A stretch of DNA of 64,000 nucleotides from an uncultured Bacilli bacterium (GCA_910576925.1 CAJTKB010000001.1:41803-105802), one strand, 5' to 3'; counted from the first letter of the stretch, positions 20,171-41,331 are shown. Made by a program: numbers and translations. The notes: a model not told the origin generated them from the letters alone.

Positions 20171-21042
20171 TAAGCACCTCCAACCACTTCATAGGCATCG
20201 GTTACAACGAAAAATGCATTTTTATCTATTTCATTTATTCCTTCTTTTAGACGGTAATATTCTTTAGTTGGTAAAACACACATTAGAACAGTTTCTTTTT
20301 TGCTTTTAAATCCTCCTTCTGCACTTAATACTGTTACACTATGATGTAATTCATCAATGATATAATCTCTAATTTGTTGCTCCTTTTTAGTTATGATATA
20401 GAAAGCTTTAGAATCCGATATTCCTAATATTACTCGATCTGTTATATAACTTAATATATATAGTAGGACAATCGCATACATTATTTTATTAAGGCCAAAT
20501 ACCAACCCACTTAGAATTATTATTAGACCATCACTGAAATACATAGCATTTCCAATACTTATTTTACAGTATTTTGAGATTATTTGATTAACAATATCAG
20601 TTCCGCCTGTTGAAAATCCCGCCTTAAATACTAGTCCTGAACCAAATCCTTGAATTACTCCTGCAAAAATAGCTGATAGGAGTAGTACTGAAGTATCTAG
20701 GTTTAAGACATCATTTATATTTTGAGTCAGTTTTATGAAAAGGGGAAAAAGAAGACTTCCTAAAGCTGAATGTATTGTTTTTTCTTTTCCTAAAGCAAAA
20801 TAACTAATTATTAAAAGAAGAACATCTATTACTGCGACAAATAATGATTGATCTATATTAAATAGATAATTGATTATTATAGAAGTTCCACTTACTCCTC
20901 CAGCTACTAGTTCATTTGGTGAACAAAATAAGTTAAAGGAAATAGCTGATAAAAGTACTCCTATTATTAGTTGTAAGTATCTTTTGAATTTTCCCTTTTG
21001 ATATATGTCATGTAATATATTTTCTTTATTTTTTTCTATCAT
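20170..21042 (-). CDS. YitT family membrane protein (paralog)
   Basis: AGGVSGTSII. Same architecture as 19298..20170. Start overlaps the stop of the upstream gene. Confidence 0.7.
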   Translation of the reverse strand: MIEKNKENILHDIYQKGKFKRYLQLIIGVLLSAISFNLFCSPNELVAGGVSGTSIIINYLFNIDQSLFVAVIDVLLLIISYFALGKEKTIHSALGSLLFPLFIKLTQNINDVLNLDTSVLLLSAIFAGVIQGFGSGLVFKAGFSTGGTDIVNQIISKYCKISIGNAMYFSDGLIIILSGLVFGLNKIMYAIVLLYILSYITDRVILGISDSKAFYIITKKEQQIRDYIIDELHHSVTVLSAEGGFKSKKETVLMCVLPTKEYYRLKEGINEIDKNAFFVVTDAYEVVGGA

Positions 21043-22130: not shown

Positions 22131-22267
22131 TTTATCCCAACTTTCTAATCTTATTATACACATTGTTTTTTCATTTTAAACATTTTTATGTATATTTTTT
22201 TATTCTTTACATATTATATTAGTGAGGAAGGTTCACTATGTAGTGTGAAGATCCTCTGTATATAGAT

Positions 22268-22291
22268 TGGAGCATATATGCTCCTTTTTTT
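22268..22291 (+). terminator. Palindromic hairpin plus T-run (possible terminator at island left border)
   Basis: GGAGCATATATGCTCC followed by TTTTTTT. Confidence 0.35.
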
Positions 22292-22321
22292 GTTTCAATT
22301 ATATTGATAAATTTATATATT

Positions 22322-23362
22322 TTAATTTAATTTTTCAAGACAATGTATATATTCTACTGTTGTATTTTTTAAATATGTTCTTTTTTTATCTGCTTTGAAT
22401 CTTTTATGCTCTTTTTCATATAATTTGTATCTTCCGTATTTTGACATTATATTTTTTATTTCTTCTAATGGTATTATACCCTCGTCATTATAACTTAGTA
22501 GAATATATTTAAAATCTGCTTTTTCTATTATTTCTTCTAAGGCTTTAGTAGCTTCTTTTTTTATGCAATATTTGGATTTTTTATTTTCTTCTTTTCTTAT
22601 TCCTGTTTTACCTTTTATTTCTGGATTATCATATAGTGCTATTGTTTCTAACATATGATAATTTGTATCATACTTTCTAGTATTGTATGGTGGATCCATA
22701 TATAAAATATCACCTTTTATTTTTTTTATTAAGTTGTTACTATCTTCATTATATACTTCTAATTTTTTGCACTTTTTATTAATTATTACTTCTACAGGTT
22801 TTAATTCTAAATTATTACAAGCAGATTTTTTCATTTTTTTTAGAAAAGCTTCGTATACAGAAGCAGTATTAGCAACTTTATCAGCTGATTCTATTAAACT
22901 TGATATTAAGAAATTATATTCTGTTTCATTAATCATTTTTTCTTTTTTCCAAACTTCTATTTGTACTCTTATAGCATCTATTTTTTGGGCATTTTCTGCA
23001 CTAAAGTATTGTCTTTCAAATTCGTTTCCTGCTGTTCCTTCTAATGAGTAGTTCTTATATATAAATCCTTTTTTATTTCTAATTTTATTTAAGTATTCGA
23101 ATGGTTCTATATCATTTTCTTTTAATATTCTAAATTCTAATGTTTCATTGTTTTTTATAAAATGTTTTGCTGTTATGTAACTGTAATATTGAATATCATT
23201 AGAAATGATACTATAGCCTTTCTTTTTGAAGTATTTACCAACTGCACTTGTTCCTGCGAAAATATCACAAAATACAATATTATTTGACTCTGGTTTTATA
23301 AAGTCTTCTATTGTATCATCTATATATTGAAGTATTGAAGTTTTTGATCCTATATAGTTCAT
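22322..23362 (-). CDS. D12-class (Dam-like) N6-adenine DNA methyltransferase
   Basis: N-terminal YIGSK (Dam WAGGK-like), motif I DIFAGTSAVG, motif IV DPPY. 346 aa. Confidence 0.8.
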   Translation of the reverse strand: MNYIGSKTSILQYIDDTIEDFIKPESNNIVFCDIFAGTSAVGKYFKKKGYSIISNDIQYYSYITAKHFIKNNETLEFRILKENDIEPFEYLNKIRNKKGFIYKNYSLEGTAGNEFERQYFSAENAQKIDAIRVQIEVWKKEKMINETEYNFLISSLIESADKVANTASVYEAFLKKMKKSACNNLELKPVEVIINKKCKKLEVYNEDSNNLIKKIKGDILYMDPPYNTRKYDTNYHMLETIALYDNPEIKGKTGIRKEENKKSKYCIKKEATKALEEIIEKADFKYILLSYNDEGIIPLEEIKNIMSKYGRYKLYEKEHKRFKADKKRTYLKNTTVEYIHCLEKLN

Positions 23363-23452
23363 ATTAAGCCTCCTCTTTTATTATAACATAATATGTATTG
23401 GTATAATTTGTAATATTTATATATAAAGCGTTTTATGTTATAATTTCATAAG

Positions 23453-24265
23453 GTGATTGTAGTGAAGAAAAAGAAGATTAATGATATCGACATGAAAAAT
23501 TGGAAAAATTATGATGATATTATTACAGATAGTCTTTGGATTATAGATAAGAGAGATAATTCAGGTAATCATTTGGGTGACTATCATGGGAATTTCATAC
23601 CACAAATACCTAATCAATTAATGAAGAGATATACTAAAGAAGATGATTGGGTTTTAGATGCTTTTGCTGGTAGTGGCACTACTTTAATAGAATGTCGAAA
23701 ACTTAATAGAAATGGAATTGGGATAGATATAGATAAGGATATTTTAGAGGTTGCTAAGGAAAGATCAACTACAGAGATCGGTACTTCTGAACTAGAATTT
23801 ATTAATGCTGATAGTGCAGTTGTTGATTTGAATAATATTTTGGTTAAAAATAAAATCGATAAAGTTCAGTTAATAATATATCATCCACCTTATTGGGATA
23901 TAATAAAATTTAATGATTTAAAAGGAAATTTAGCTAATCTTAGTACTCTTGATGAGTTTTTGGATGGTTTTTCTAAAGTTATTGATAATACTGCTAAGTA
24001 TTTAGAGCGTGATAGATATCTTGCAATTGTGATTGGTGATATTTATAAAAAAGGCAAATGGATACCTCTTAATTCGTATATTACGCAACTAATGTTAGCT
24101 AAGAATTTTTTATTAAAGTCTGTAGTTGTTAAAAATGTTTCTGAAACTAAAGCTAAACAAAATAATAAATCTATATGGAGATATAGGTCTTTGCTTGGCG
24201 GCTTTTATGTATTTAGTCATGAATATATTTTAATTTTTCAAAAAACGAAAAAGACAAATATTTAA
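23453..24265 (+). CDS. Putative SAM-dependent DNA (N6-adenine/N4-cytosine) methyltransferase
   Basis: DAFAGSGTTLIECRKLNRNGIGIDID (PF01555-type motif I) followed by HPPY (motif IV-like). 270 aa. Likely GTG start at 23462. Confidence 0.55.
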   Translation: MIVVKKKKINDIDMKNWKNYDDIITDSLWIIDKRDNSGNHLGDYHGNFIPQIPNQLMKRYTKEDDWVLDAFAGSGTTLIECRKLNRNGIGIDIDKDILEVAKERSTTEIGTSELEFINADSAVVDLNNILVKNKIDKVQLIIYHPPYWDIIKFNDLKGNLANLSTLDEFLDGFSKVIDNTAKYLERDRYLAIVIGDIYKKGKWIPLNSYITQLMLAKNFLLKSVVVKNVSETKAKQNNKSIWRYRSLLGGFYVFSHEYILIFQKTKKTNI

Positions 24266-24290
24266 AAATTTATTGAACTACAATAAATTT

Positions 24291-24533
24291 TTATTTGTCT
24301 TCTTTTAAGTGTTTTCTAAACTCAAGTGGATCATACCAAAAGCAACCTATACAACCCTGAGAACTTCCATCGTGATTTTCATCTCCACTATAAAATGACA
24401 TAGGATAACCTAATTTTGTAGCATCAAACCTTTTGTTTGTTCTTCTGCATTCTTTACAAATTTGCCTTTTGGCATCATTTGCTGCTTTACTTAATGGTTG
24501 AAAGTCCTCTAATTTTTGAGTTCTAATATCCAT
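24291..24533 (-). CDS. Small Cys-rich (CxxC...CxxC) protein, hypothetical
   Basis: 80 aa. CKEC...CIGC suggests a zinc ribbon. Last gene of the three-gene operon. Confidence 0.4.
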   Translation of the reverse strand: MDIRTQKLEDFQPLSKAANDAKRQICKECRRTNKRFDATKLGYPMSFYSGDENHDGSSQGCIGCFWYDPLEFRKHLKEDK

Positions 24534-24586
24534 TGCAGTATCATTTTTCCAGCCATTTTTATGATCTACCTCTGGTTTTGAAGTAT

Positions 24587-24910
24587 TTAGTATAACACAT
24601 CTTTTATTTTTGTAGTAGTTTTTATATCTGTTCTTATTACTTGACTTCCTATTCTGTCTTCTTCTTTTTTTAATCCATTTAGTCTGATTCTATCAATACC
24701 TCTAGATCTTTTATCAAATTCTATATAATAGTATTTGGCAATTGTTGACTCTTTTCTACACCAATCTGCTCCATTTTTAAACATCAAACTAGCATATTCA
24801 TTAACAAATTCTGATTTTGATACCCATCTACTTTTTCCTTCATCATCAGGTTGTGCTAATTCAATAAATAAGTAGGGCTTGGTTCCTATTTTAAATTTTG
24901 GTTGATTCAC
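24587..24910 (-). CDS. Hypothetical protein, translationally coupled to the upstream nuclease-like gene
   Basis: The GTG start overlaps the TAG stop of the upstream gene (TAGTGA). RBS GGAGG sits 8 nt upstream. Confidence 0.45.
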   Translation of the reverse strand: MNQPKFKIGTKPYLFIELAQPDDEGKSRWVSKSEFVNEYASLMFKNGADWCRKESTIAKYYYIEFDKRSRGIDRIRLNGLKKEEDRIGSQVIRTDIKTTTKIKDVLY

Positions 24911-26025
24911 TATTTTTCCTCCTCAAAGATAATTTCTTTATTTTCTTCTTTAAATGATATATATCTAATGGTTTCTATTTTATACTGTTTTTCTATCCTA
25001 ATAGTATAGTTTTTTATGTCTTGATACATTTTTTTATTTTTTTTATTAGGAGTAGGGGCAATTATTGTAGGATGTATGACTACTAATTTGTTATAAGTAG
25101 GAACTATATAATCTTTAATCCAGTTAACATACTTTAACAACTGATTTTTTATAGATTCTTTAGGTTGTTCATCTTTTAATTCACAAACAATAATATCAGT
25201 TCTTTCGTCATTTTCTTGTATAAGGCAAATATCTATACTTTGCATTCCAACTCCACAAGAAACTTCATTTCCAATCCAAGTTATTTTATCATCCGTTACT
25301 TTTAACGCATCTATATTTGAAATATTTTGTAAAATATATGCTTGCATATGAGCCTCATAAGCTAGTTTTATGTTTTTTTTGTAAATTAACCTATTTTTTA
25401 TATTTAAGGATTCCTTTTTACCTTTATAGGTTTCTGAGTTATTAGATGTAACTATTTTGTTTTCAGCTATGTCATAATTATAGTTATTTCCTATTAGTTT
25501 TTTATAATTATTTTTATGTCTAATTTTATTCATTATTTTATCATATTCATAATCTGTTATCATAGTGCATCCTCTATTACCCTTTAGTTTTCTATATATA
25601 AGGCTCCAGCACATTTCGCTTGGATGTTTTATATTATCTAATGAGTCTAGGCACTCTCTTTCTGTAATTCCTTGTTCATATACTTCATCAGGAGTAAACA
25701 TAACTCTAAAAGTTAGATTTTTATTCAATTCATAGTTTAAATACTTGTCGTTGCATAGAAAAGGAGCTTCTATTGCCTTAAAACTTGCAAAAAACATTCC
25801 ATCATGATCTTGTGTTTTTTGTAAGTAAAATAATATATTATCATTTTTTTTAATTCTAGATATATCGGCTATCATTTCAGTTAATTGTCTTTCTACTATT
25901 CCTTCTATTTTGATATCGTTATTTATTAAGTAATTACAATCATATTTTTTTGCTCCTGTACCAGCAAATTTATATTGCAAGTGGATTGATAATGTTCTTC
26001 CGTCAACGATAAAAACATGAGCCAT
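24910..26025 (-). CDS. PD-(D/E)xK nuclease-like protein (candidate restriction/defense endonuclease)
   Basis: C-terminal IDICLIQENDERTDIIVCELKDEQ fits the D...E-x-K nuclease motif. Likely start is the ATG at 26025 (MAHVFIVDG, RBS AGGTGA); the track start at 26079 uses TTG. Confidence 0.5.
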   Translation of the reverse strand: MAHVFIVDGRTLSIHLQYKFAGTGAKKYDCNYLINNDIKIEGIVERQLTEMIADISRIKKNDNILFYLQKTQDHDGMFFASFKAIEAPFLCNDKYLNYELNKNLTFRVMFTPDEVYEQGITERECLDSLDNIKHPSEMCWSLIYRKLKGNRGCTMITDYEYDKIMNKIRHKNNYKKLIGNNYNYDIAENKIVTSNNSETYKGKKESLNIKNRLIYKKNIKLAYEAHMQAYILQNISNIDALKVTDDKITWIGNEVSCGVGMQSIDICLIQENDERTDIIVCELKDEQPKESIKNQLLKYVNWIKDYIVPTYNKLVVIHPTIIAPTPNKKNKKMYQDIKNYTIRIEKQYKIETIRYISFKEENKEIIFEEEK

Positions 26026-26585
26026 TTTATCACCTACTTCATTGAAGAATATTTTATCATAATTTTTATCTATATACAATTTTAATTTTTCTTCCCTTAT
26101 TATTAAGTGTAAACAGTATCAAAACTTTTGAATGTAATTTTCTGCTTCTTGTAAAATCCGTTAAATTTATTCTGCTTTTTATTAAGTTGTCACTATTTAT
26201 TTTTCTTCTTAACTATTCTATACTATATATCAAATACTTCATTATTAACTCTTTATTCTAATATTATTCTATCAAAAAAAGATAGACATTTAAAACTATC
26301 TTTATAAAAAGTCTCATAGGTATCAATGCCTTTAATTAATGATATTGCATATTTATGGCCTTTAAGCTACTTCCCACAGCATTGCTTACATTTCTTACCA
26401 TTTTCATACTCTTCTGATCTTAAGTATATATAGTATTTGTAAATATTTTTAAATAAAATTTACATTTATTCGCTAAACTGATTATATCGTATTTTATTTT
26501 TCTTAAATTCTTTTTATTCAATTAATACTTATCCATACCAGATTGATAGGAAACTCGAACTTTTCGAGTAGTAATAGAAAACGAC

Positions 26586-26614
26586 TTGTCAAAAAGTCGT
26601 TTTTATGATATTAT
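26586..26614 (+). promoter_or_regulatory. Strong sigma-A-type promoter (TTGTCA, 17-nt spacer, TGaTATTAT) driving an antisense transcript
   Basis: TTGTCA at 26586-91, extended -10 at 26606-14. Embedded in the palindrome ACGACTTGTCAAAAAGTCGT. Confidence 0.5.
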
Positions 26615-26704
26615 GCATATAGATGAAGAATTCTTCATACAATAAAAAGGGAATACTTAACCTTTCCTTGTTTGAGTGTTCACCAGAATGTGGTTAGCAC
26701 TTAA

Positions 26705-26830
26705 TCTACGAAAGTAAATTGAGTGCTTTTGTCTTATTATAGATTACTATATTACCAAAGTAAAAAGTAAGGCTATGAGTAAGAAGATAATTAGAATAAG
26801 TGATAAGATTAAAAAATCTTTCTTATGCAT
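26705..26830 (-). CDS. 41-aa hydrophobic peptide (candidate type I toxin, Fst/TxpA-like)
   Basis: MHKKDFLILSLILIIFLLIALLFNFGNIVIYNKTKALNLLS. RBS AAAGGAGG 8 nt upstream. The 5'UTR can pair the SD with an upstream GCCTACTTT segment. Confidence 0.45.
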
Positions 26831-26892
26831 ATCATCAGCCTCCTTTCATTTGAAAGTAGGCAAACACTCAACGATTAAATATTCCTAAAATA

Positions 26893-26921
26893 ATTATACA
26901 AAACAAATGTTTTTATTACAA
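26893..26921 (-). promoter_or_regulatory. Promoter for the small-peptide mRNA (TTGTAA, 17 nt, TATAAT)
   Basis: Minus-strand TTGTAA (26916-21) and TATAAT (26893-98) give a leader of about 56 nt. Confidence 0.4.
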
Positions 26922-27003
26922 TAAATTTATACTAAGTTATGACAATTTAGTAAAACACACTTGCATATTGACAATATCAATATGTATATATGGAGATATT
27001 TAA

Positions 27004-27489
27004 ATGAATAATACTATTAAAGGTACAAGTTGTTATGCAAATGCTAAATCAGGAAATCTCGTTTCAATAACAGGTGACGGTGGAAATGCTTGGGGATTTT
27101 ATGGACAATCATATAAAAAGTTAGCACCAAGTCTAAAATTATATGAATACTGGCGTGATAATCCTGATCATTTAAGTGATATGGAATTAATTGAATATTA
27201 TGTACAACAATACTATAATCATCGTTTAATAAATTTAAATGTTGAAGAACTTTTTAATATTTTAAGAAACAAATTTGGAGAAGAAATTATTCTTTTATGC
27301 CATGAATTACCAAGCGAATCACCAATGATGGATAAAAAACATTTTTGTCATAGAAGATTAGATGTAGATTATTTTGAACTTGAAACTGGAATAATCATTC
27401 CTGAAATAGGTATTGATGAAAGTGGTATTATAACTTATTATGAACAACCAAATTATAAAACTATTTTAAAAAAAGTTATGAAAAAATAA
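27004..27489 (+). CDS. DUF488-family (YeaO-like) protein
   Basis: LAPSLKL and ILLCHE...HFCHRRL fit the DUF488 LLCxE...CHR signature as I recall it. 161 aa. Confidence 0.5.
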   Translation: MNNTIKGTSCYANAKSGNLVSITGDGGNAWGFYGQSYKKLAPSLKLYEYWRDNPDHLSDMELIEYYVQQYYNHRLINLNVEELFNILRNKFGEEIILLCHELPSESPMMDKKHFCHRRLDVDYFELETGIIIPEIGIDESGIITYYEQPNYKTILKKVMKK

Positions 27490-27770
27490 TATTTTATATA
27501 GCAAAAGTTGTTATACCTCATCCTTTAGGGTACATATAGATAGCATAATCATACCTTTTCCCTTTTTAACATCTACACTTAATAAGGCTTCATTAATTAC
27601 TCATTTCTTGATTACAGGCTTCTGTTTCTATCATTATTTTATCAAGCTTGTTATATTCTAAGACCATTTAATTTGTGTTCTCACTTATACTCTTGATAAA
27701 TAATTTAACCTGAAAAATAAGATATAAATATTAAATTATTTACATCTAAAGTATACTTGTAATCTATCTT

Positions 27771-28658
27771 TCAAAATAATGCTATTTGTTCATTGTTTTT
27801 TATTTCTTTTTTATACGCACTAATAATATCTTTCATATTATATAATATTCCATATTTATCGCATTCATCAGTAAATATTTTGTATAAGTACTTATGATTA
27901 GGCACAGTACAATAATATTTATTCCCATAATATTCAATATACTTTTGTTTCAAGCCTTTAAAATTTCTGTCTAACACTTCAAAATAGTAATCTCTTTGAT
28001 TATCTCTTAAAGTCATTCCCATATAAGTATGAATAAATCTTGCACCATATTGGCTTGCTAGTCTCACTAATTCCTTTATATCTTCTTCTTTATCAGTAAT
28101 AAATGGCAAAATAGGATTCAACATAATACCTGCAAATATTCCGTTCTTACTTAATTCACTAATTGCTTTAAATCTATTTGAAGAAGCACATACATTAGGC
28201 TCTATTATTTTAGATAAATCATCATTTGATGTTGTTATAGTAAATTTAACAATGACATCATTTTTAGCATTTATTTTTTTTAATAAATCTATATCTCTCA
28301 AAATTAAATCACTTTTTGTGTCAATAGAAACTCCATATCCATATTTTGAAAATAGTTTTAATGCACTTCTAGTCTGTTCATATTTTATTTCTAATGGATT
28401 ATAAGTATCTGACATTGATCCAATACCTACAACACCTTTTTCTCGTTTTCTTGATAATTCTTGTTCTAAAATTTGAAGTGCATTTTCTTTTCCTTTAACA
28501 AGATCAAAATTTTCTATATGATAGCAATTACTTCTGCTATCACAATAAATACATTTATGAGAGCATCCTCTGTATAAATTGATATTATAATTAACACCAT
28601 ACCATTCAGATCCGTCTTTTACTTTTGTAAGCATTGTTTTTGCTTTTATGTATTCCAT
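27771..28658 (-). CDS. Radical SAM protein, SplB-like (spore photoproduct lyase / DNA repair photolyase COG1533 family)
   Basis: YRGCSHKCIYCDSRS CxxxCxxC cluster in the COG1533-type context. 295 aa. Confidence 0.7.
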   Translation of the reverse strand: MEYIKAKTMLTKVKDGSEWYGVNYNINLYRGCSHKCIYCDSRSNCYHIENFDLVKGKENALQILEQELSRKREKGVVGIGSMSDTYNPLEIKYEQTRSALKLFSKYGYGVSIDTKSDLILRDIDLLKKINAKNDVIVKFTITTSNDDLSKIIEPNVCASSNRFKAISELSKNGIFAGIMLNPILPFITDKEEDIKELVRLASQYGARFIHTYMGMTLRDNQRDYYFEVLDRNFKGLKQKYIEYYGNKYYCTVPNHKYLYKIFTDECDKYGILYNMKDIISAYKKEIKNNEQIALF

Positions 28659-28661
28659 TTT

Positions 28662-29408
28662 TTACTCCTTTATCAATTTTTCAAATGAACTTGCATTTAA
28701 TATTGTATTTGAAATAAATTTTCCTTTATAAAAATTAGCCCAATTATTAAATATGCAAGGAGCATTTTTTGCTTTATCTAAAGTATCTATTTTTATAAAG
28801 TTAATTTTAATATTATTATCTTTTGCATATTCAGTTAGTTCTTTTACTTCATATTCAACATAAGGACATTCTGGACTATAATAAATCGTAAATTCATCAT
28901 TATCAATTTTCATATTTCTAGCATTATCATTAAATTTAGGTGTTTCATTATCATCAAATTGTAATGCCAATAATTCATAATCCCCTATACTATCTACAAC
29001 TTTAAATCCATAGTGCTCAAAAAATTTCTTTTCTCCAATAAATGGTTTTTTCTTTTTAGAAGTTAAAGTACACATTCCACTCATACCTTTTTCTTTAGAG
29101 TCATTGATAGCATACTCTAACAATTCTTTTGCAATACCTTTTCCTTTAAAACTTCCTGCTACCCATAGACAGTAAATATATTCATAATTCTTACCACTAA
29201 TAGGAATCCAGGCAGTTTCTATTGGCTCATATTCAATGAATGTTTTTCCTCTTGCATTTAATTTTCTAAATACATGACCATTTTTTAATTTTCCTTTTAT
29301 CCATTCTTTCTTTTTATCTACTCCATATTGATGTTTAGGATCACCAATAGCACAGCATATATGCTCATCATCTATGTTTTCTAATGTTAAATTTATATAT
29401 TCATTCAT
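28662..29408 (-). CDS. GNAT acetyltransferase with C-terminal YoaP-like domain
   Basis: N-terminal GNAT (WVAGSFKGKGIAKELLEYAI) plus an approximately 110-aa C-terminal extension of YoaP type. 3-nt gap to the radical SAM gene. Confidence 0.6.
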   Translation of the reverse strand: MNEYINLTLENIDDEHICCAIGDPKHQYGVDKKKEWIKGKLKNGHVFRKLNARGKTFIEYEPIETAWIPISGKNYEYIYCLWVAGSFKGKGIAKELLEYAINDSKEKGMSGMCTLTSKKKKPFIGEKKFFEHYGFKVVDSIGDYELLALQFDDNETPKFNDNARNMKIDNDEFTIYYSPECPYVEYEVKELTEYAKDNNIKINFIKIDTLDKAKNAPCIFNNWANFYKGKFISNTILNASSFEKLIKE

Positions 29409-29441
29409 TTTACTTTACTCCTTAATAAATTAAAATTTAAA

Positions 29442-30030
29442 TTACTATTTCCTCTTAATTGGATGTCTTATAACAGTCTTTAATTTGCTTACATCACATT
29501 TTCTTGGGTCACTTAAATATATTTCATGATGATATCTTGTATCTGTTATATCTAATTCGTATCATTGATCCATAACAAATTTGTGCATATCCTCAACTGT
29601 TGCTGGTTCATTATCATAGGAACCTATATGCATACATTGAACGCAAGCACCCTCATCATAAGTGAAAAATTCAACTTTTGAAAAATCTTGTTTCTTTTTT
29701 GCTTCAGAAATAGCCCAGTCAAAATCTTTTTTCGTTACAAAATCAGGTAATCTAATTATTGATATAAAGTTCATTGTTCCTTTATTATTATAATCAATAG
29801 TTCCTTTTATACCATCTTGCCACCAAAAGCCCTCTAACGGTGTACAACATATTCAAAGAAGCTATCAATTTTATATAGTAACCCTATTGTGTTTTGATAT
29901 TCTCTATTTTCTTCATTAGGATTTCATTTTCCTCTTACTGCAATATAATTCATTTTGGAACTTCAACTATACTAGATTTATTCTTCGGCAGATAAAACTC
30001 CTTATATTCTTTCTTATAATCAAATGCCAT
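29442..30030 (-). pseudogene. GyrI-like small-molecule-binding domain gene, disrupted (in-frame TGA plus frameshifts)
   Basis: MAFDYKKEYKEFYLPKNKSSIVEVPK...FISIIRLPDFVTKKDFDWAISEAKKK...EGACVQCMHIGSYDNEP. Stop at 29562-64 with the same frame continuing (YELDITDTRYHH). Several stops/frameshifts lie between 29780 and 29960. Confidence 0.6.
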
Positions 30031-30096
30031 ATTTTATCCCTCCCATCACTTGATACATAAATTATAGCAAACTTAATATGACAAAAGATTGTCATA

Positions 30097-30987
30097 TTAA
30101 AAATAATTATTTATACTTTTATTTAATATATCTATAATTTCCTTTTTCACAAAAGATGGCTCTAACACTTTTATATGCTCACCAAAAGAAAGAATATATC
30201 CATAAATCCAATCATTAAAAGGTAACTGGGCTTTTACTAGAAAGGTATTATCAATATCTGTTATTTCTGATTCATCAAATTCATCATAAACTCTATAGGC
30301 TAAACATTTATCAATTTGCAACACTAATTTTACCATCTTAGGTGGTTTATCATTTTTATCAAAATCAATATCCATAGTTCTTTCAAAGTTTTGACTTAAA
30401 GTTTTAAAATTTTTAATTCGCATCAACTTAAAAAAGCGATAATCATTTTTTTCTTGATCAAATCCACATAAATACCAAGAATTATATCTAAAATATAATT
30501 TTAAAGGTTCAACTTTTCTTTTTGTAGTCTTTCCATAAGAATTAAAATAAGAAAATTCGACAACCTGTTTATTTAAAATGGAATTTTTAATTAAATTAAA
30601 AACTTGATTATGTGTATCGGATTCACCCCAAACAGAAAAATCAACATCAAACCAGCTTTCTTCATCTTTAGAGAAAATATTTTTTAATTTTTCATAAATA
30701 TTATTATTATCAATTTGTAATTTATTCATTCCTTCTAATGAAAAGAGAATTTGATTTTGTTCTTCATTTGTTAATAGTGATTTATCAAATTTATAATCTT
30801 CTAATAAAAATATCCCACCATTTTTTCCTTTAGACATATATATTGGTATATTTAATTCACTTAACAGTTCTATATCCCTGTATATTGTTCTTGTTGATAC
30901 TTCAAAATATTCTGACAACTCTTTCGCAGTCATTGTTTTTTTAGAAAGTAATAAGTATATTATTCCAAATAAACGATTTTGTTTCAT
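30097..30987 (-). CDS. WYL-domain transcriptional regulator (YafY-like HTH plus WYL)
   Basis: MKQNRLFGIIYLLLSKKTMTAKELSEYFEVSTRTIYRDIELL HTH, then a WYL-type C-terminal region. The track start at 31005 is GTG; the ATG at 30987 is more likely. Confidence 0.7.
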   Translation of the reverse strand: MKQNRLFGIIYLLLSKKTMTAKELSEYFEVSTRTIYRDIELLSELNIPIYMSKGKNGGIFLLEDYKFDKSLLTNEEQNQILFSLEGMNKLQIDNNNIYEKLKNIFSKDEESWFDVDFSVWGESDTHNQVFNLIKNSILNKQVVEFSYFNSYGKTTKRKVEPLKLYFRYNSWYLCGFDQEKNDYRFFKLMRIKNFKTLSQNFERTMDIDFDKNDKPPKMVKLVLQIDKCLAYRVYDEFDESEITDIDNTFLVKAQLPFNDWIYGYILSFGEHIKVLEPSFVKKEIIDILNKSINNYF

Positions 30988-31130
30988 CTTACAGCTCACT
31001 TTCAAATAACTATTTATCTATTAGATACATTATATCAAAAAAAGAACATCTTTTATAGATGCTCTACTAAATAAATTGTAATTTACTATTATTATCTTCA
31101 ATAGTTTTAGTTATTTCATCTTCAGATAAC

Positions 31131-31337
31131 TTAACAAAATTCTGAACATCTAGTTACTATTGCTTTTGCATTAATTTTTTTTGTTCCTTTTTCCATAAAG
31201 TAAAGTATCTCATCTTTAAAAATTCTACTATGAGGTATTTTCCTTCCCACTGCACCTATTATAATCATTGTTTTACTACCATCTAAAATTTTTGATAATT
31301 CTTTTGATTTATCATCACAATATACTAAATGTACCAT
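31131..31337 (-). CDS. Hypothetical small protein (possibly a gene fragment)
   Basis: 68-aa ORF preceded by an AAATAGTAATTTG leader word. Confidence 0.3.
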   Translation of the reverse strand: MVHLVYCDDKSKELSKILDGSKTMIIIGAVGRKIPHSRIFKDEILYFMEKGTKKINAKAIVTRCSEFC

Positions 31338-31489
31338 AATTACATCCCCAATCTTTTAAACAAATTACTATTTGTCTATTATTTCTATTATATTAAAGTT
31401 GTGTTCAACTTAAGTTTAATAAAAGCTAATTTATAAAATTCAATATCTAGCACATATTGTCATTATTCAAGTTTTCTAACATGATATCG

Positions 31490-31855
31490 TTAATATATTA
31501 CCATTATTATCAAAAATAGCGAATTCGTCTTTTCCATAGAAAGTTTTGTGAATTTTTTTGCAATATAAACCTTATCCTTTAATTCTTCATATAGACCATT
31601 TACATCATCTACATTGATAAACAAAGTAAATGTTGGAATGATTTCAGCTTTTTTTAAAGTGGAATACTCTTCTAACAAATTGTTTTATTCCTGAAACATT
31701 ATAGAAATATTATCTTTGCATACTATAGAAAATTCTAATACCTCCCCATTTTCTGGAACACTTAAAACCTTTTGAAATCCTAATTTTTCTTCATAAAATT
31801 TTACTGTTTCTTTTACATTTTTCACCATAATATTAACTGTTATATTTTTATACAT
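31490..31855 (-). pseudogene. VOC/glyoxalase-bleomycin-resistance family gene with in-frame TAA
   Basis: MYKNITVNIMVKNVKETVKFYEEKLGFQKV...IMFQE*NNLLEEYSTLKKAEIIPTFTLFINVDDVNGLYEELKDK. The same frame continues after the stop. Confidence 0.55.
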
Positions 31856-31920
31856 ATTCTATCGCCTCCGAACTTAATTATATAATAAGAAAAATTATAT
31901 ATATTGTAAAAAACAGACAT

Positions 31921-32700
31921 TTACCTATATTTCTCTAATAGTTGTAATGGAGAAAAACCTGTGTACTTTTTTATTTCTTTTATGAAATGAGACTGATCAT
32001 AAAAACCACACATATTTGTAATATCAATTAAAGTCATTTCATTATCTATCAATAAAGTTAAACAGAAATGTAATCTTAAAATATTTAACATTACTTTAGG
32101 AGATACCCCATAATTTGCTTTAAATATTCTATAAAGTTTTCTTTCATGATAACCATAGTCTTTAGCAATCTTTACAGCATTTTGTTCTTGTGGACTTTCA
32201 TATAATTTATCTATTATTTTTATAGTTTGATTAAAAGAACTATTCTTAATTTTTTCTAATAAATAATCTCTAAAAATATTCAATCTCTCATTAACATTAA
32301 TAGTATTCAATATTTTTTCTAGATAACCATATTTATCGATTTCAAAAAAGGGTATAGGATGATCCATAATCTTATCAGTATTGACTCCAAATAAAATAGA
32401 AAAAGCACTAGGTTTTAATCTAACCCCCATAAAATCGGTTCTTTTATTTAATTCAAAAGGAACAGTATCTTTACTAAATCCTGCAAAACAAATAGTTCTA
32501 TTAGAAAAATTAACTACTATGTCAATACAAGCATCTGGAAGTATATAATTGTATATTGTTTTATTTAATATTTTTTGAGTTTGCATTATCGAAATGCACA
32601 TGCAATAATCATTTAATTCCTCAAATTGATATTCGGTATATATAATATTTTCATTAAATTCTTTATCTAATAAATATGGTATTTGTTTTGGATAATACAT
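31921..32700 (-). CDS. AraC-family transcriptional regulator
   Basis: C-terminal AraC HTH (HERKLYRIFKANYGVSPKVMLNILRLHFCLTLL...MCGFYDQSHFIKEIKKYTGFSP). Confidence 0.75.
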   Translation of the reverse strand: MYYPKQIPYLLDKEFNENIIYTEYQFEELNDYCMCISIMQTQKILNKTIYNYILPDACIDIVVNFSNRTICFAGFSKDTVPFELNKRTDFMGVRLKPSAFSILFGVNTDKIMDHPIPFFEIDKYGYLEKILNTINVNERLNIFRDYLLEKIKNSSFNQTIKIIDKLYESPQEQNAVKIAKDYGYHERKLYRIFKANYGVSPKVMLNILRLHFCLTLLIDNEMTLIDITNMCGFYDQSHFIKEIKKYTGFSPLQLLEKYR

Positions 32701-32734
32701 TTATTTCAACTAACTTTCATATTGTAATTTCTAG

Positions 32735-32938
32735 TTATACTCTATTGAAAATTATTGTTTTATCTTTTATTGATATTTTACCAACTTCATATCCAAATTC
32801 TTTTGCCTCTTTCTTATAATTCAAAAAGGAATGATCTATTTCAAATCCTATAATGTTTTTAATTTCTTCATAAGTTAATTTATAATTTTTTTTATTATTA
32901 TTTTTCAAATACTTCCATAATGTCTCATATTTGCTCAT
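32735..32938 (-). CDS. Small hypothetical protein (67 aa)
   Basis: MSKYETLWKYLKNN.... Has its own conserved leader. Confidence 0.4.
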   Translation of the reverse strand: MSKYETLWKYLKNNNKKNYKLTYEEIKNIIGFEIDHSFLNYKKEAKEFGYEVGKISIKDKTIIFNRV

Positions 32939-32964
32939 ACCTTAACACCTCTAAAACTTATAAT

Positions 32965-33132
32965 TCAATCTTCAATTTTAATAATAATATCGTACGCAGT
33001 AGAACATTCTTCTTTTGATAATTTTGTTTCTTTAACAAGATATTCTATTGCTTCATCTTTGTTAGAAAAATCTTTTAATTTTTTTTTTACTTTTTTAAAT
33101 TTCTCAATAACATCTTTAATTTTGTTATTCAT
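32965..33132 (-). CDS. Small hypothetical protein (55 aa)
   Basis: RBS GTGAGG, ATG at 33132 (MNNKIKDVIEKFKK...). Preceded by the conserved leader. Confidence 0.3.
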   Translation of the reverse strand: MNNKIKDVIEKFKKVKKKLKDFSNKDEAIEYLVKETKLSKEECSTAYDIIIKIED

Positions 33133-33266
33133 AATTTTACCTCACTTTCAAAGTGTAATTTGTAGTTATTTCCAATAACCTGACATTTCAAAATCTACAC
33201 AATTAAATTCTTTATTTCTTCAAAAGTGTGTTTTGCCATAATCTCACACTCCTAAATTGTAATTTA

Positions 33267-33842
33267 TCATTGTGATAGAACAATCAAGTCTTCTTTTTTA
33301 TACTTATTATGACCTTTTAGGCTTTTCTTATATTTCCAACATTTAATTGCTTCATCTAAACTTTTATCTTTATTACACTCGAAAAAATCTCTAATATAAG
33401 TGTTATATTCAAATTGTTTATCAATAGTAGTTTTATTTTTCTTTTTATCTTCTAGTATCTGATAATATGCTTGTATTGATTCTTGATAAGTTTTTCCTGC
33501 ATTATTTTTTAACCATTTTTGAAATAATACATTAAAAGAAAAACTATTTCCTATTTGTTCTTTATAAAACTTTCTATGCTTTTCGGAACAAACAAAATTG
33601 CTCTCTATTTTTGTATCAAGTGTGATAATATCAGGTATATTTGTTTTTGCTTTATTATGAGTTTTAAATGTCTTTTTTCCTGTTTCTAAAAATTCTATTA
33701 TTCTATCAGTTAATTCTTCTTTACTACCTGTTGCTTGTAAATTATTGTTTTTACAAAAACTTACTAATTCTTCTTTTAAATAATAAAACTCTTTAAAAAT
33801 TTTACTATCCAAATTTATATCTAATATAGGTCTTTCACTCAT
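33267..33842 (-). CDS. SAP-like / DUF6434-like protein
   Basis: MSERPILDINLDSKIFKEFYYLKEELVSFCKNNNLQATGSKEELTDRIIEFLETGK. The ATG at 33842 follows the GGAGTGAGG leader; the track start is GTG at 33854. Confidence 0.5.
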   Translation of the reverse strand: MSERPILDINLDSKIFKEFYYLKEELVSFCKNNNLQATGSKEELTDRIIEFLETGKKTFKTHNKAKTNIPDIITLDTKIESNFVCSEKHRKFYKEQIGNSFSFNVLFQKWLKNNAGKTYQESIQAYYQILEDKKKNKTTIDKQFEYNTYIRDFFECNKDKSLDEAIKCWKYKKSLKGHNKYKKEDLIVLSQ

Positions 33843-33848
33843 AATAAA

Positions 33849-33873
33849 CCTCACTCCTAAATTGCAATTTGTT
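33849..33873 (-). promoter_or_regulatory. Conserved leader motif AAATTGCAATTTAGGAGTGAGG (one of about ten related copies, 31.0-36.5 kb)
   Basis: Near-identical 20-25-nt elements abut the start codons of consecutive minus-strand genes at 33242-33267, 33140-33163, 35581-35603, 36444-36480, 34341-34380, 34661-34690, 32711-32734, 32941-32975 and 31006-31045. Each contains a TACAAT -10-like word plus the SD. Confidence 0.45.
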
Positions 33874-34207
33874 ATTTAATCGGAATGTAGATTTCAATAA
33901 TAGAATCTTCTTTATTCCTATGAAATCTATAATCATATCTTTCAAAATAAACAAATCGTCTGTTTTTTATTAAAATATTATTTCTTAATTTACTATTAAA
34001 TATTTTACGATAATTTTGTGATAATTTCACATTGTTACTTAATGACCTTGATAGTCATACCTTATTCCTATTACATTAAATTCTTCTAATTCTATTATTT
34101 GATAATCCATCTCTTTTACCTTTTAAATTTGTGTGTTGTTATAATTGTGTAACTATATGAGTTAATAGTTATTGTTATATTATCAATTTCACAATACCAA
34201 TTTTTAT

Positions 34208-34339
34208 CTAAAACTTTACTCTTACAATACTCACAACATCATCAGTATCTAATTTAAGATTTTTCATAATTCTATAAATCCCCGTTTTGGTAGTATGAAA
34301 TTTATCTATATTATCTAATAATATTTGCTTATTTTCCAA
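34208..34339 (-). CDS. Small ORF, possible DUF3781-like fragment (TTG start)
   Basis: (M)ENKQILLDNIDKFHTTKTGIYRIMKNLKLDTDDVVSIVRVKF. RBS GAGGAG sits 8 nt upstream of the TTG. Confidence 0.25.
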   Translation of the reverse strand: MENKQILLDNIDKFHTTKTGIYRIMKNLKLDTDDVVSIVRVKF

Positions 34340-34420
34340 TATTTCAACTCCTCTGCGAACTACTATTTATCGTTCTGTTTATATTTATAATTGTATCATG
34401 AAAAAAGCAAATCTTCTATA

Positions 34421-34660
34421 TCAGTTTTTTTCTCTTATATCATTACTTATTATATTATTTTCACTATCAAGAATAAATACATCTCCAGAATCTCTTTCAA
34501 TTATATCAAGTATTGAATTAAGCGTTGTACTTTTTCTTGCTCCATTTTCTCCTATTAGTCCAACAATACTTCCTTTTGGAACATTAAATGAAATATTATC
34601 CAAAGGAAAATCATCATATTCTTTTGTTATATTTTCGATTTTTAAAGCATAATCTGACAT
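34421..34660 (-). pseudogene. ABC transporter ATP-binding protein, N-terminal fragment only
   Basis: MSDYALKIENITKEY...GLIGENGARKST Walker A, then a stop after about 80 aa. Confidence 0.55.
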
Positions 34661-34812
34661 TTTATTTTTCCTCCTCAATGTACTTGTTTGATAAGCACAT
34701 TATGTTACATTTTATATTCTATGTCAACAAAAATTAAAAAAGGTCTATCATTTCTGATAACTTTAATATTACAGGTTAATAATTTTCTGAAGTTTCTAAA
34801 CTATTTTATCTT

Positions 34813-35589
34813 TCACTTTTTTATAATATAAAAACTATAAATTCCAAGTAATAAATAAGTTGGTAAAATAATATATAAACTTATACTTGGATAAGTTGTC
34901 GTAGTTGTAAAACAATATGGTAAAGCACATACATCTATTATAAAATGAATAATAATTGGTAGCCAGAGATTATTAGTTTTTTTATATATTGCACCAAAGT
35001 ATATACCCATAGCAATAGTCCATATTACTTTTGTAATTATAATAAGAATTGGTTGTCCTAAAACACCTAATATATGTCCTAAACCAAAAATAACAGATGA
35101 TGCAATAATTGCTATAGTCGTATTATCTTTCTTTTTATAGCATATTTTTTCAATAAAATTTAACAATAAACCTCTTACATATAATTCTTCAACTATTGAA
35201 ACACCTATATAATATATAATTCCCTCAATTAATACTTTCCATATTGTTGGATTATAATTAAATGGTTTTAGTCCTATATAAAATGCGATTCCTGATATGA
35301 TTCCTACAATAATTCCTACTATACCATATTTATTTAATCCATTTTTTAAGTTGTTTACACTAAGTCCTAGTTTCCAATTAGGACAAAGATATTTTAAAGT
35401 TAAAAATGCGATTATGCTAATAATTATAAAGTTAAACATTAAAATAAAATAAAATGGTGTTATATCTAATATTTCAATATTTATAAATAAGGCACTTGGT
35501 AATCCACTTATATCCATAAATGCTAATACAATTGTAAGAATACCTATTATTACTAATTCTTGTTTTTTCATCATATGCCTCACTTCCAA
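34813..35589 (-). CDS. CPBP family intramembrane metalloprotease (CAAX protease / Abi immunity-like)
   Basis: EELYVRGLL (EExxxR), FGLGHILG (FxxxH), FIIDVC. Multi-TM. 258 aa. Confidence 0.7.
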   Translation of the reverse strand: MEVRHMMKKQELVIIGILTIVLAFMDISGLPSALFINIEILDITPFYFILMFNFIIISIIAFLTLKYLCPNWKLGLSVNNLKNGLNKYGIVGIIVGIISGIAFYIGLKPFNYNPTIWKVLIEGIIYYIGVSIVEELYVRGLLLNFIEKICYKKKDNTTIAIIASSVIFGLGHILGVLGQPILIIITKVIWTIAMGIYFGAIYKKTNNLWLPIIIHFIIDVCALPYCFTTTTTYPSISLYIILPTYLLLGIYSFYIIKK

Positions 35590-35597
35590 ATTGTAAT

Positions 35598-36443
35598 TTA
35601 ATGATATATTTTATTTTTATTTTTTCTATAAATCACATAGATAATAATAAATGATAAAATCTGAGCAATCATTATTCTTATTATCTGTAATTCATCTGCA
35701 CCAGATTTTGTTACTATATGAATAAGATTTGTAGCAATAATATTATTAAATAAATGATCTCCTATTCCAATAAACAAACTACCAGTCATTTGATATAACA
35801 AGCCCCATTTAATACTCATAATTCCAGCAAGAATAATATAGCCTATTGTCATTACAAGTAAATTAACCAAATTTATCTCGCCATATACATATGATTTTAG
35901 AGGCATTACAAAATGCCATATTCCAAATAATAATGCCACTATTAAATTTGCATTAAAAAAAGTATTTTTGTTATTAATTATTTTCAAAAAGAAACCTCTA
36001 AACATTCCTTCTTCCATAATAACATTTATAATATTCATAACGATGCATAAAAGAAAGAATACTAGTTCTGTTCTTTTAACTTCTTTTCCAACTAAAGAAA
36101 ATCCATTAACATATATTTCAAAATTAGGACTATTTGAATTTAGATATAGAATGAGATATTCTATGAAATAAGATATTCCAAAACAAAGTAAACCTAGTAA
36201 TAATCCATATGATAAATATTTATACCAATTACTTTTCGTAAAACCAATATCTTCAAATTTATAATTCATAATTTTGATTAAGATAACTAATATTATGATT
36301 GCTATTAGTTTGTGAATGAAATTTTCTGCTATAAATGTTTCATCAGTTTTAATAATAAAATATTCTATCATTCTTACTGCTATACACAATATGAATATAA
36401 AAATGCTACTCAAAATTGGCTTATTTAAAATATACTTTTTCAT
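35598..36443 (-). CDS. CPBP family intramembrane metalloprotease (second copy, diverged)
   Basis: MEEGMFRGFF, FGIWHFVMP, GDHLFNN. Multi-TM. 281 aa. Confidence 0.7.
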   Translation of the reverse strand: MKKYILNKPILSSIFIFILCIAVRMIEYFIIKTDETFIAENFIHKLIAIIILVILIKIMNYKFEDIGFTKSNWYKYLSYGLLLGLLCFGISYFIEYLILYLNSNSPNFEIYVNGFSLVGKEVKRTELVFFLLCIVMNIINVIMEEGMFRGFFLKIINNKNTFFNANLIVALLFGIWHFVMPLKSYVYGEINLVNLLVMTIGYIILAGIMSIKWGLLYQMTGSLFIGIGDHLFNNIIATNLIHIVTKSGADELQIIRIMIAQILSFIIIYVIYRKNKNKIYH

Positions 36444-36644
36444 ATGTCATCTCCTCAAATTACTATTTTTTTGTTCTGTTTACTTTAATATTATATCACG
36501 TTTCCTAATATTATTATAGATATCGTGTTTATTCTATTTCATATTCATAATCATCAAATAGATTGTAATCTACTTCTTTTTCTTTAAACCATCCTATATC
36601 TTCATCCCACTCTATTTCTTGATTTTTAAGTTTATCAAGATTAT

Positions 36645-36875
36645 TTAAAATTGAAGATTAAAATATCCTTTTTCTCCTCTAACTTTTTCGATAATTAAAT
36701 ATCCATATTCCTTTAATTCTTTAAGCGTAGACTTAATAGCTCGTTATTGTTCTTTACATACTTTGCAAATACCATTTAAAGAATAATTCCAATTTTCGGG
36801 TAATGACAACATAAAATACAATAACCCTTTTGCTTTTAAACTTAAATTTTTATCCATTAAATGGTAGTTACTCAT
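36645..36875 (-). pseudogene. RepA_N-like (Firmicute plasmid/ICE replication initiator N-terminal) gene remnant with internal stop
   Basis: MSNYHLMDKNLSLKAKGLLYFMLSLPENWNYSLNGICKVCKEQ*RAIKSTLKELKEYGYLIIEKVRGEKGYFNLQF. Family assignment is from memory. Confidence 0.35.
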
Positions 36876-37214
36876 TACTGTATAATTTGTAGTTTTTTAT
36901 ATCTTAAACCCCATAAACATCACCCTTTCATTTTTATTGATTTATTAACTAAATTTTATGCAACAAAATACTTTTCAAATTTACTAACTATTTCTTCTTT
37001 TGTGAATATATGTGCTAGATCTCTATCAGGTTCATCATACTTGGAAATCTTACTTTAATAGATGAATCATATTTTATAAATTGAACTATTTAAGCAGCCT
37101 ATGCAAAAGATGATTTAATTACTTTAAGTATCTTTTCAAGTCTCATCTTTAAATGATTTTTAATAATATATTGATATGTTTCATTGTATGATGTTTTAGT
37201 TTTATATAACAATA

Positions 37215-37460
37215 TTATTGCATCCGATAATCTAAATAATCACTATAAGATACTTCAGATGGTTTAAAATTGTGCCCTGTTTCTAAATAATAATTTAAGG
37301 CTTTAATTCCTACTCGTTCTGCTTCCACCTTAGTTTTAAAACCAGATTTATTAATATATTTTCTTTTTCCATCTTGAGGTGCTATTTCAAATCTATATTG
37401 AAATACATCTTCTATTTTCCGAACACTTACTTTTGATATTTCTTTTCCTCCTACTAATTT
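37215..37460 (-). pseudogene. Tyrosine recombinase (phage integrase) N-terminal arm-binding fragment
   Basis: KISKVSVRKIEDVFQYRFEIAPQDGKRKYINKSGFKTKVEAERVGIKALNYYLETGHNFKPSEVSYSDYLDYRMQ*. No start codon and no catalytic domain. Confidence 0.5.
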
Positions 37461-37565
37461 ATTAGTAAGCGAAGAAAAAAGATGGCACGAATGCTATCTT
37501 AAATTTGTTTTCATAAAATTTTTCCTTTATTTTAAAGGTTTTTTGCTTTTTTAGATGATCCAAAA

Positions 37566-37618
37566 AATTTTTATGGGAACAAAATGGGAACATTTTACAT
37601 ATTTTTCTTTCCATTTTG
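37566..37618. terminator. Strong bidirectional terminator at the secA 3' end / island right border
   Basis: GGAACAAAATGG(G)AA-loop-TTCCATTTTGTTCC perfect 14-bp stem followed by TTTTTT. A-run on the other side. Confidence 0.6.
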
Positions 37619-37662
37619 TTCCTTTTTTAATTTTAGATTACTGAAAAACCTTATAAAATATG

Positions 37663-41311: not shown

Positions 41312-41331
41312 GATTGAGTGAGGTTGGTAGT

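Follow-up and report, generated by a model that had tools for sequence, protein, structure and literature searches.

We analysed a 64,000-nucleotide (nt) stretch of DNA from an uncultured Bacilli bacterium (GCA_910576925.1 CAJTKB010000001.1:41803-105802), referred to below as the window, in which accessory genes separate secA from prfB within the gene order hpf, secA, interval, prfB. With the true start of prfB at 22128, this interval measures 15.5 kb. It is very probably a composite accessory island that has grown at a site-specific integration hotspot in the tail of secA, and of which the window holds an immobilised fossil. A preliminary description, made from the sequence alone, had correctly reported the separation of the two genes, and had taken the interval for a single degraded element of about 15 kb, similar to an integrative and conjugative element (ICE) or a prophage. 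Related loci (labelled L001 and onwards) were collected in two ways. A secA-anchored scan, with one genome per species, gave 80 secA loci (L001-L080; SecA identity 66-98%), all from metagenome-assembled genomes (MAGs) of uncultured low-GC Bacilli, and an integrase-anchored scan of metagenome contigs, in which an alignment of four intact integrases served as the query, was independent of the secA anchoring. Gene content was assigned with Pfam, PADLOC and NCBIfam, and phage families via PHROGs. The features that carry the argument are listed below (ORF, open reading frame; att, attachment site; RBS, ribosome-binding site; HTH, helix-turn-helix).

40242-40763, minus strand: hpf
37663..40161, minus strand: secA, the target gene (ORF and translation; Pfam domains listed for an identical protein)
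37659..37696, minus strand: putative attL core, the proximal direct-repeat copy (last ~34 nt of secA plus 4 nt)
37461..37662, minus strand: P' arm of attL, with an ATAAGG box, repeats, and a hairpin with a T-run before the integrase RBS
36985..37460, minus strand: tyrosine integrase pseudogene (arm domain and part of the SAM-like domain)
36650..36875, minus strand: replication-initiator-type winged-HTH fragment with an internal stop (HTH_36, E 2e-7; PHROG replication initiation proteins, E 5e-14)
26363..26446, minus strand: putative attR, a P arm with ATACT-type repeats followed by a displaced secA tail
26274..26303, minus strand: AT-rich hairpin and T-run, read from the sequence ~60 nt past the displaced stop codon (not called by the terminator scanner)
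22129..22284, minus strand: conserved prfB leader (87% identity to L020, 70% to L013 and L042, upstream of their prfB)
21026..22128, minus strand: prfB (ORF; programmed +1 frameshift CTT TGA C at 22055-22061)

A direct repeat (D8) in the same orientation links 37659-37696, at the end of secA, with 26363-26400 (79% identity over 38 nt). The segment shared throughout the family is the last ~42 nt of secA, beginning with TGTGG, and its register and sharp left edge were recognised in 20 loci. This core encodes the SEC-C zinc finger CGSGKKYKxCCGK*. The C-terminal zinc finger of the SecA protein of the window (CPCGSGKKYKQCCGK*) is still intact after integration, and the displaced tail at attR encodes ...GKKCKQCCGK*, with the stop codon in register. 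Distal copies in relatives consist of an AT-rich arm with ATAATACT-type repeats ~10 nt apart, followed by the secA tail, and a profile built from 13 of them matched 26368-26446 with 23.9 bits (window-wide E 2.1e-6); when the interval was shuffled 200 times, no score exceeded 6.9 bits. The tail of secA itself was also matched (37664-37710, E 4.5e-11), and no further att copy was scored in the window. The secA-tail repeats at 26363 and 37696 can therefore be read as attR and attL, which gives an att-bounded segment of 11.3 kb (26363-37696). The hairpin at 26274-26303 is possibly the original secA terminator, since in L060 a hairpin and T-run likewise follow the last core.

The integrase arm-domain fragment reported earlier at the secA edge was confirmed (Arm-DNA-bind_4, E 3.5e-8): it corresponds by tblastn to residues 3-182 of the intact 423-amino-acid (aa) integrase of L001, with stops and an internal deletion. 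The missing C-terminus, which contains the catalytic domain, was sought throughout the window by tblastn and is absent from it. Between secA and the integrase remnant, what had been described as a very strong bidirectional terminator proved to be an array of element-specific direct and inverted repeats, GGAACAAAATGG and TGTTCCCATTTTGTTCCC, at 37564-37634 (inverted repeat I23; fold -23 kcal/mol, z -3.3), such as is present here in every relative. A separate terminator-like hairpin with a T-run (37479-37500) lies just before the integrase RBS. The same order recurs in 44 distinct P' arms of relatives: the core, a ATAAAATAAGGGTTTGCGAGG-like box, two to three direct repeats of a 7-9-nt word, inverted copies of the word, a hairpin with a T-run, the RBS and int. 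The word itself varies by element (TGTTTCC, TGTTTGCA, TGTTCGCA, TTGACAGCG and others). As the arrangement is conserved while the sequence changes, the words are probably protein-binding sites. RNAalifold returned no structure for the hairpin before int, the stems being unregistered in the MAFFT alignment, and the hairpins were seen by eye only.

The association of this integrase family with the tail of secA is close. Among 70 integrase copies with at least 55% identity and sufficient sequence on the upstream side, a secA-tail core precedes the gene by 167-260 bp (median 236) in 68. Of these 68, 58 are located at secA itself, the SecA proteins of their hosts having just 39-78% identity to that of the window, and the other 10 lie behind a P arm with a core and so belong to inner units of arrays. 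The integrase remnant of the window, ~220 bp past the secA stop, has kept the same core distance. Conservation of the SEC-C motif at the nucleotide level may explain how one integrase family can serve hosts whose SecA proteins are <50% identical. Extra copies of the secA tail are also frequent: where at least 1 kb of sequence past secA was available (47 species-level loci), 27 loci contain one to three copies downstream, all co-oriented and all starting at TGTGG (Cys-Gly codons).

SEC-C motifs (Pfam PF02810) are found at the ends of many small proteins. This counts in favour of an explanation in which the tail copies are the C-termini or remnants of such proteins, or arise by chance, and insertions without site specificity built the island beside an unrelated dead integrase; an in-frame peptide (EPSAPxSSQN...PCGSGKKYKxCCGK*) does precede the copies in L039, L058, L064 and L071. 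However, most copies are not reached by an ORF and follow AT-rich repeat arms, and some match the resident secA tail perfectly for 30-45 nt although their flanks are unrelated. Moreover, blocks of high identity between species stop at the copies (positions 6924-8999 of L039 equal 15905-17980 of L071 at 95.8%, ending at cores, against 73.9% for secA), and the integrase occurs at a set distance from the copies. This explanation is largely refuted and we regard it as very unlikely.

The content of the interval is highly variable. Where prfB was visible, the gap between secA and prfB ranged from 1.2 to >10 kb and its content differed in every related species; the three shortest gaps contain one gene each, a different gene each time. 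The preliminary description had held that the same genes in all relatives would mark the interval as ancestral core genome, and this is clearly not what the relatives carry. In that view the integrase fragment would be incidental. The uniformity of the same-species contigs (identical SecA or YitT), all of which have the same island genes where they reach into the interval, does agree with ancestral descent. Against it stand the three single-gene intervals and the fact that homologues in the corresponding interval of the 80 related species were limited to the GNAT gene, the radical SAM gene and one small ORF, so that this view is refuted and its probability is close to nil. In L060 and L162 the order is secA, elements, last core and prfB, with prfB 140-235 bp past the last core; its closeness to prfB reconstructs the ancestral adjacency of secA and prfB, the arrangement of Bacillus subtilis.

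A comparison with L001, which has 98% SecA identity and an intact integrase, places a break at the same point. The two sequences share 86-96% nucleotide identity as far as the secA stop codon, after which it falls at once to 32-46% (ungapped); the integrase region reaches only ~80%. This indicates that the window and L001 carry different element alleles, with the break at the core. We also observed that, of the 80 MAG contigs, 29 stop no more than 600 bp past secA, compared with 5 on the upstream side, as is expected for a repeated or strain-variable locus. The tail of secA is thus a systematic break in MAG assembly, and accessory genes located there are under-recovered.

The nature of the integrating elements is apparent from intact relatives. 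Integrases with complete Phage_integrase domains occur in L001, L003, L044 and L162. From secA to prfB, L044 and L162 contain Int1, two cargo genes, an HTH_36 protein, an HTH_17 excisionase (Xis), Int2, a Mob_Pre (MobV) relaxase, cargo, and a P arm with core; L120, which also has Mob_Pre, adds an AAA ATPase. The combination of Int, Xis and a MobV relaxase defines these as small integrative mobilizable elements (IMEs) of 2.5-9 kb, arranged in tandem, rather than ICEs or phages. The HTH_36 proteins of L044 and L162 (162-175 aa) are the intact homologues of the winged-HTH fragment of the window. The latter had been described as a RepA_N-like remnant: it is indeed a broken replication-initiator gene with an internal stop, but it had no match to Pfam RepA_N, and corresponds instead to HTH_36 and PHROGs families. 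When the window was probed by tblastn with 14 backbone proteins of intact relatives (including two MobV relaxases and Xis), no Xis, MobV relaxase or second integrase was detected, the sole match being the known N-terminal integrase fragment. No ORF of 22.2-37.7 kb had a domain of conjugation or type IV secretion genes, and no virion, packaging, lysis or satellite genes were found there, the only PHROGs matches being those of the integrase and the replication-initiator HTH and some to families without an assigned function. A phage origin of the integrase was considered and rejected, as IMG/VR returned merely 7 distant relatives (<=40% identity) and the best known phage integrases have 34% identity to the family.

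These data bear directly on the idea of one old, degraded ICE or prophage of ~15 kb, extending from the prfB-side hairpin to the secA-side terminator. It would account for integrase and replication-gene fragments at one edge with a hairpin at the other, and restriction-modification (R-M) genes are a frequent cargo of mobile elements. Nevertheless, the attR signature (26368-26446) lies 4.1 kb short of prfB, so that the att repeats bound only 26363-37696 and leave the R-M cluster (22.3-26.1 kb) beyond attR. Conjugation, relaxase and virion genes are lacking even as remnants, and the intact relatives are small mobilizable elements. No relative was found to carry the R-M cluster of the window in a repeat-bounded unit, and no second, eroded tail copy was found near 22.3 kb. 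The prfB-side hairpin exists (22269-22284), but it marks the edge of a leader that other species share, and is not an end specific to the island. This leader also contains a second small hairpin (22224-22256), and its consensus fold includes one compensatory pair. Because the sequence below 22273 is conserved before prfB in other species, the island must end between 22284 and 22322. A single ICE or prophage is therefore improbable.

According to the composite-island explanation, lambda-type tyrosine integrases (with arm-binding, SAM-like and catalytic domains) would use the last ~42 nt of secA as their core, recombination presumably occurring within it. The incoming element would bring its own copy of the secA tail, by virtue of which SecA stays intact, and the original tail would be pushed to the far end to become attR. 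In the window, 26363-37696 would be taken up by a single such element, or by several that fused, whose integrase has, presumably afterwards, lost its catalytic domain and whose HTH gene is broken. Having no recombinase, no Xis or relaxase, a broken HTH gene and att sites diverged to 79% identity, the segment should be incapable of moving itself, and resembles a fossil of a cis-mobilizable element (CIME). The divergence of its att sites (21%) argues, at the sequence level, against its excision or transfer through a related integrase or element acting in trans or in cis. The earlier reading of an integrated and now immobilised element is supported to the extent that the island was built by site-specific integration next to secA and that the integrase and HTH genes are pseudogenes. 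A check for a shift in base composition had been suggested; GC (0.22-0.28) and an unchanged skew do not set the island apart in a genome of 25% GC. As to alternative targets, 20-41 kb contained neither a tRNA nor a known Rfam family.

Several points weigh against the composite-island explanation. Six relatives (L020, L021, L037, L043, L047 and L049) have accessory genes in the interval and no detectable tail repeats, which implies that other processes also fill the space between secA and prfB, and the R-M cluster of the window may illustrate this. The preliminary description had suggested looking for an empty secA-prfB junction and for att repeats; the repeats were found, whereas exact-protein look-ups (12 contigs for SecA, 14 for YitT) gave no conspecific empty or different site. 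The attR of the window is degenerate, with 8 mismatches in 38 nt, and a single distal copy is detectable, so that the 11.3 kb may represent either one element or several. The position of the crossover and the protein-binding roles of the repeats are inferred from sequence.

About half of the units in the arrays of relatives are small. We measured 35 core-to-core units; 18 of them, 0.2-1.7 kb long, lack an integrase and contain one or two genes whose orientation is nearly always that of secA. Their cargo includes NTPase, Nudix, SDR, RidA, KilA-N, GH10 and PNP/UDP phosphorylase genes, a CfrBI-type R-M pair, DUF3644 with a nuclease domain, and GNAT-YoaP. Units of one array (L068, L039) have common P' (~80-190 nt) and P (~80-210 nt) arms and different cargo. 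The NTPase unit shared by L009, L059 and L078 has 92-95% identity in comparisons with L009, against 72% for secA. Conserved arms and core-to-core identity between species strongly suggest, as far as sequence comparison allows, that such cassettes are mobile as such by means of an integrase provided in trans. It is conceivable, and we propose it only tentatively, that the tail of secA in these gut Bacilli with reduced genomes acts as a shared platform for cassette exchange, on which a minimal but complete attP (P, 42-nt core, P') with one or two genes would be excised, passed between species and re-inserted by integrases that nearby mobilizable elements supply in trans, the window then being a burnt-out array.

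Three other phenomena were noted in these arrays. A second class of distal ends (L039 6745-6955 and 8780-8992; L071 17762-17972; L058 19100-19207; L064 13900-14008) has a ~210-nt conserved arm before the secA-tail copy, with the in-frame sequence ...EPSAPxSSQNxxYxxPCGSGKKYKxCCGK*, and the matching P' arms carry TTAGATAC direct repeats. These ends probably belong to a second attP family, for which the Int2-type integrase may be responsible. A pair of integrases from one family, with 43% identity to each other, recurs in L044 (12712-16958), L162 (8001-13547) and L120 (4486-10283). Int1 follows secA immediately; Int2 is encoded several kb downstream, after Xis and next to the MobV gene, and no core was detected between the two integrases. 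This architecture may be one element or a fused tandem. Finally, extra aminoacyl-tRNA synthetase genes or fragments (MetRS-like, TrpRS-like and a ThrRS C-terminal piece) occur as cargo (L058 17378-19009; L012 13037-14020; L071 14584-15213), and could be duplicate synthetases of the resistance type.

The cargo of the att-bounded segment of the window, which is of an ordinary accessory kind, is as follows.

34813..36443, minus strand: two CPBP (Rce1-like) intramembrane protease genes (Pfam, NCBIfam)
34421..34678, minus strand: N-terminal fragment of an ABC ATPase, pseudogene (ABC_tran, profile residues 1-49 only)
31490..33854, minus strand: cargo block that includes two small ORFs (Pfam) and the three genes given next
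33267-33854, minus strand: SAP/DUF6434 protein (Pfam)
31921-32700, minus strand: AraC regulator (Pfam)
31490-31855, minus strand: split glyoxalase-family gene, pseudogene (Pfam)
29562..31337, minus strand: block of a 68-aa ORF, a WYL regulator and a GyrI-like fragment (Pfam, PADLOC WYL)
30097-31005, minus strand: the WYL/HTH_11/WCX regulator (Pfam, PADLOC WYL)
29562-29774, minus strand: the GyrI-like fragment, pseudogene (Pfam)
28662-29408, minus strand: GNAT-YoaP acetyltransferase (Pfam), which with the next gene spans 27771..29408
27771-28658, minus strand: Rv2578c-type radical SAM protein (Pfam)
27004..27489, plus strand: 161-aa ORF, function unassigned (matches phrog_2450, unknown function), the sole opposite-strand gene within the att-bounded part

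The GNAT-radical SAM pair has 81-82% nucleotide identity over 1.65 kb to L150, L166, L167 and L170, in all of which it follows integrases in secA arrays. A P arm with core comes directly after the pair in L150, and in L068 the GNAT gene alone forms a core-flanked cassette. A 21-nt motif, AAATTACAMTTTGRAAGTGAG, was observed five times on the minus strand (32710, 33141, 33245, 33850 and 35579; span 32710-35599) against 0.03 copies expected. All copies in the window lie within the island, at least four of them a few bases before a start codon (AraC, a 55-aa ORF, SAP/DUF6434 and CPBP), and the motif is also present in the cargo of two other secA arrays (L137 10830, L166 17018). It may be a shared leader or RBS, or a regulator site.

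Outside the att-bounded segment, the 4.1 kb between attR and the prfB leader contain the R-M cluster (MTase, methyltransferase).

22322..26079, no strand assigned: R-M cluster (Pfam; PADLOC MTase_II, E 1e-104 to 1e-110)
22322-23362, strand not listed: D12 MTase (Pfam, PADLOC)
23453-24265, plus strand: N4/N6 MTase (Pfam, PADLOC)
24291-24533 and 24587-24910, strand not listed: IceA-type endonuclease split in two by a stop (Pfam)

Both MTase_II genes are intact and the IceA endonuclease is split; a 389-aa protein of the cluster gave only a weak PDC-S11 match. Apart from weak MTase matches, no homologues of the cluster were found in 160 related loci, and the repeat search of the window revealed no repeat bracketing it. 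It may be either a separate insertion or an older unit with an eroded distal repeat. A D12-class N6-adenine MTase together with an IceA-family endonuclease in this prfB-proximal cluster recalls the NlaIII and IceA-HpyIM type II systems, a likeness at the level of gene families. It differs from them in that the endonuclease is split by a stop and that the second MTase and the 389-aa protein are interleaved. The genes named in the preliminary description (MTases, nuclease-like genes, WYL, AraC and CPBP) were all recovered by Pfam, PADLOC and NCBIfam, and its count of at least four pseudogenes can be raised to at least six (IceA, glyoxalase, ABC ATPase, GyrI-like, integrase and HTH gene). Its term "defense island" fits the R-M part, one endonuclease of which is dead, and does not fit the rest, which consists of regulators, CPBP proteases and small-molecule enzymes.

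Some observations concern the surroundings of the island. A conserved element of ~75 nt upstream of the prfB promoter (window 22224-22256, minus strand; L020 18192-18292; L013 21887-21987; L042 20492-20592) can form a 10-bp hairpin (GAGGA..UUCAC / GUGAA..UCCUC) with one compensatory pair, and its 3' arm is anti-Shine-Dalgarno-like. It had no Rfam match, and is missing from L060 and L162. Directly after prfB, with a 17-nt overlap, are two tandem paralogues of a 290-aa YitT/DUF2179 membrane protein (19298-21042). Just upstream of hpf lies an agr-type quorum-sensing locus (41314-45472; Pfam labels of an identical contig), with AgrB at 41314-41931 (plus strand), a 39-aa AgrD-like ORF at ~41981-42100, two HATPase_c_5 histidine kinases (42119-43444 and ~43462-44757) and a LytTR response regulator (~44738-45472).

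The analysis replaces a vague "island" with a structure whose ends, origin and dead state are defined. It also points to the 3' end of secA as a docking site conserved across many uncultured low-GC Bacilli of the gut, sampled from human, rumen, rabbit and chicken sources, hosts with small genomes in which gene acquisition is little known. Integrase-less cassettes with conserved arms, common to several species, offer a tractable case for studying the trans-mobilisation of minimal elements. If the cassette platform is real, it would be a functional parallel to integron cassettes and tycheposon satellites, built however on a lambda-type integrase and a protein-coding target.

The closest known counterparts are ICESt1/ICESt3 and the CIMEs at fda of Streptococcus thermophilus, together with streptococcal IMEs, which undergo tandem accretion at the 3' end of housekeeping genes (PMC5704250). 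In both cases the 3' end of an essential gene is the target of a tyrosine integrase, the gene being restored on insertion, direct repeats of the gene end flank the element, the elements are small and encode Int, Xis and MobV, and tandem arrays mix functional units with integrase-less attL/attR units. A CIME is defined as having kept attL and attR while its recombination and transfer genes are lost or inactive (PMC5704250), and in the window attL and attR can both still be recognised, alongside integrase and HTH genes reduced to pseudogenes. The mobilisation module of its own that characterises an IME was not detected there by tblastn (MobV, Xis). The flanking target repeats of a tyrosine-recombinase element are present; a functional catalytic integrase (R..K..HxxR..H/W..Y) is absent, and the window showed no membership of the ICEs, prophages or satellites, integrons or RepA_N elements. 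Unlike the streptococcal cases, the target is the SEC-C coding tail of secA, which is not mentioned in the review of IMEs (PMC5704250), and the hosts are uncultured low-GC gut Bacilli. Moreover, many units are cassettes of one or two genes, just 0.7-1.7 kb long, that share conserved P and P' arms, differ in cargo and recur nearly identically across species, which makes them more regular than CIMEs as usually pictured, generated by random deletions.

The tycheposons of Prochlorococcus, as outlined in bioRxiv 10.1101/2020.12.28.424599, are likewise tyrosine-recombinase elements that insert at the 3' ends of conserved genes. Part of the gene is left repeated, tandem accumulations form within genomic islands, and some units consist of cargo alone and lack a recombinase. 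Tycheposons mostly target tRNA genes in marine cyanobacteria, and the likeness is one of description, not of compared recombinases. The presence of relaxases in the secA elements points to conjugative mobilisation. With integron cassettes the secA arrays have in common single genes in the same orientation, bounded by recombination sites, beside a tyrosine recombinase and common to several species. They differ in that the recombinase is of the lambda type, with arm-binding and SAM-like domains and only weak similarity to IntI4, and that the sites are a 42-nt duplex core with arms of ~80-200 bp instead of folded attC hairpins. Each unit also has its own terminator-like hairpin and upstream region, and the array lies in the 3' end of a gene and not at attI. 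Searches of open-access papers and bioRxiv for secA as an integration site returned nothing relevant. The secA-tail target site and its cassette arrays thus appear to be undescribed, while accretion of the IME/CIME kind is already known, and it is the accretion-and-decay scheme of streptococcal ICEs, IMEs and CIMEs (PMC5704250) that applies here, at the tail of secA.

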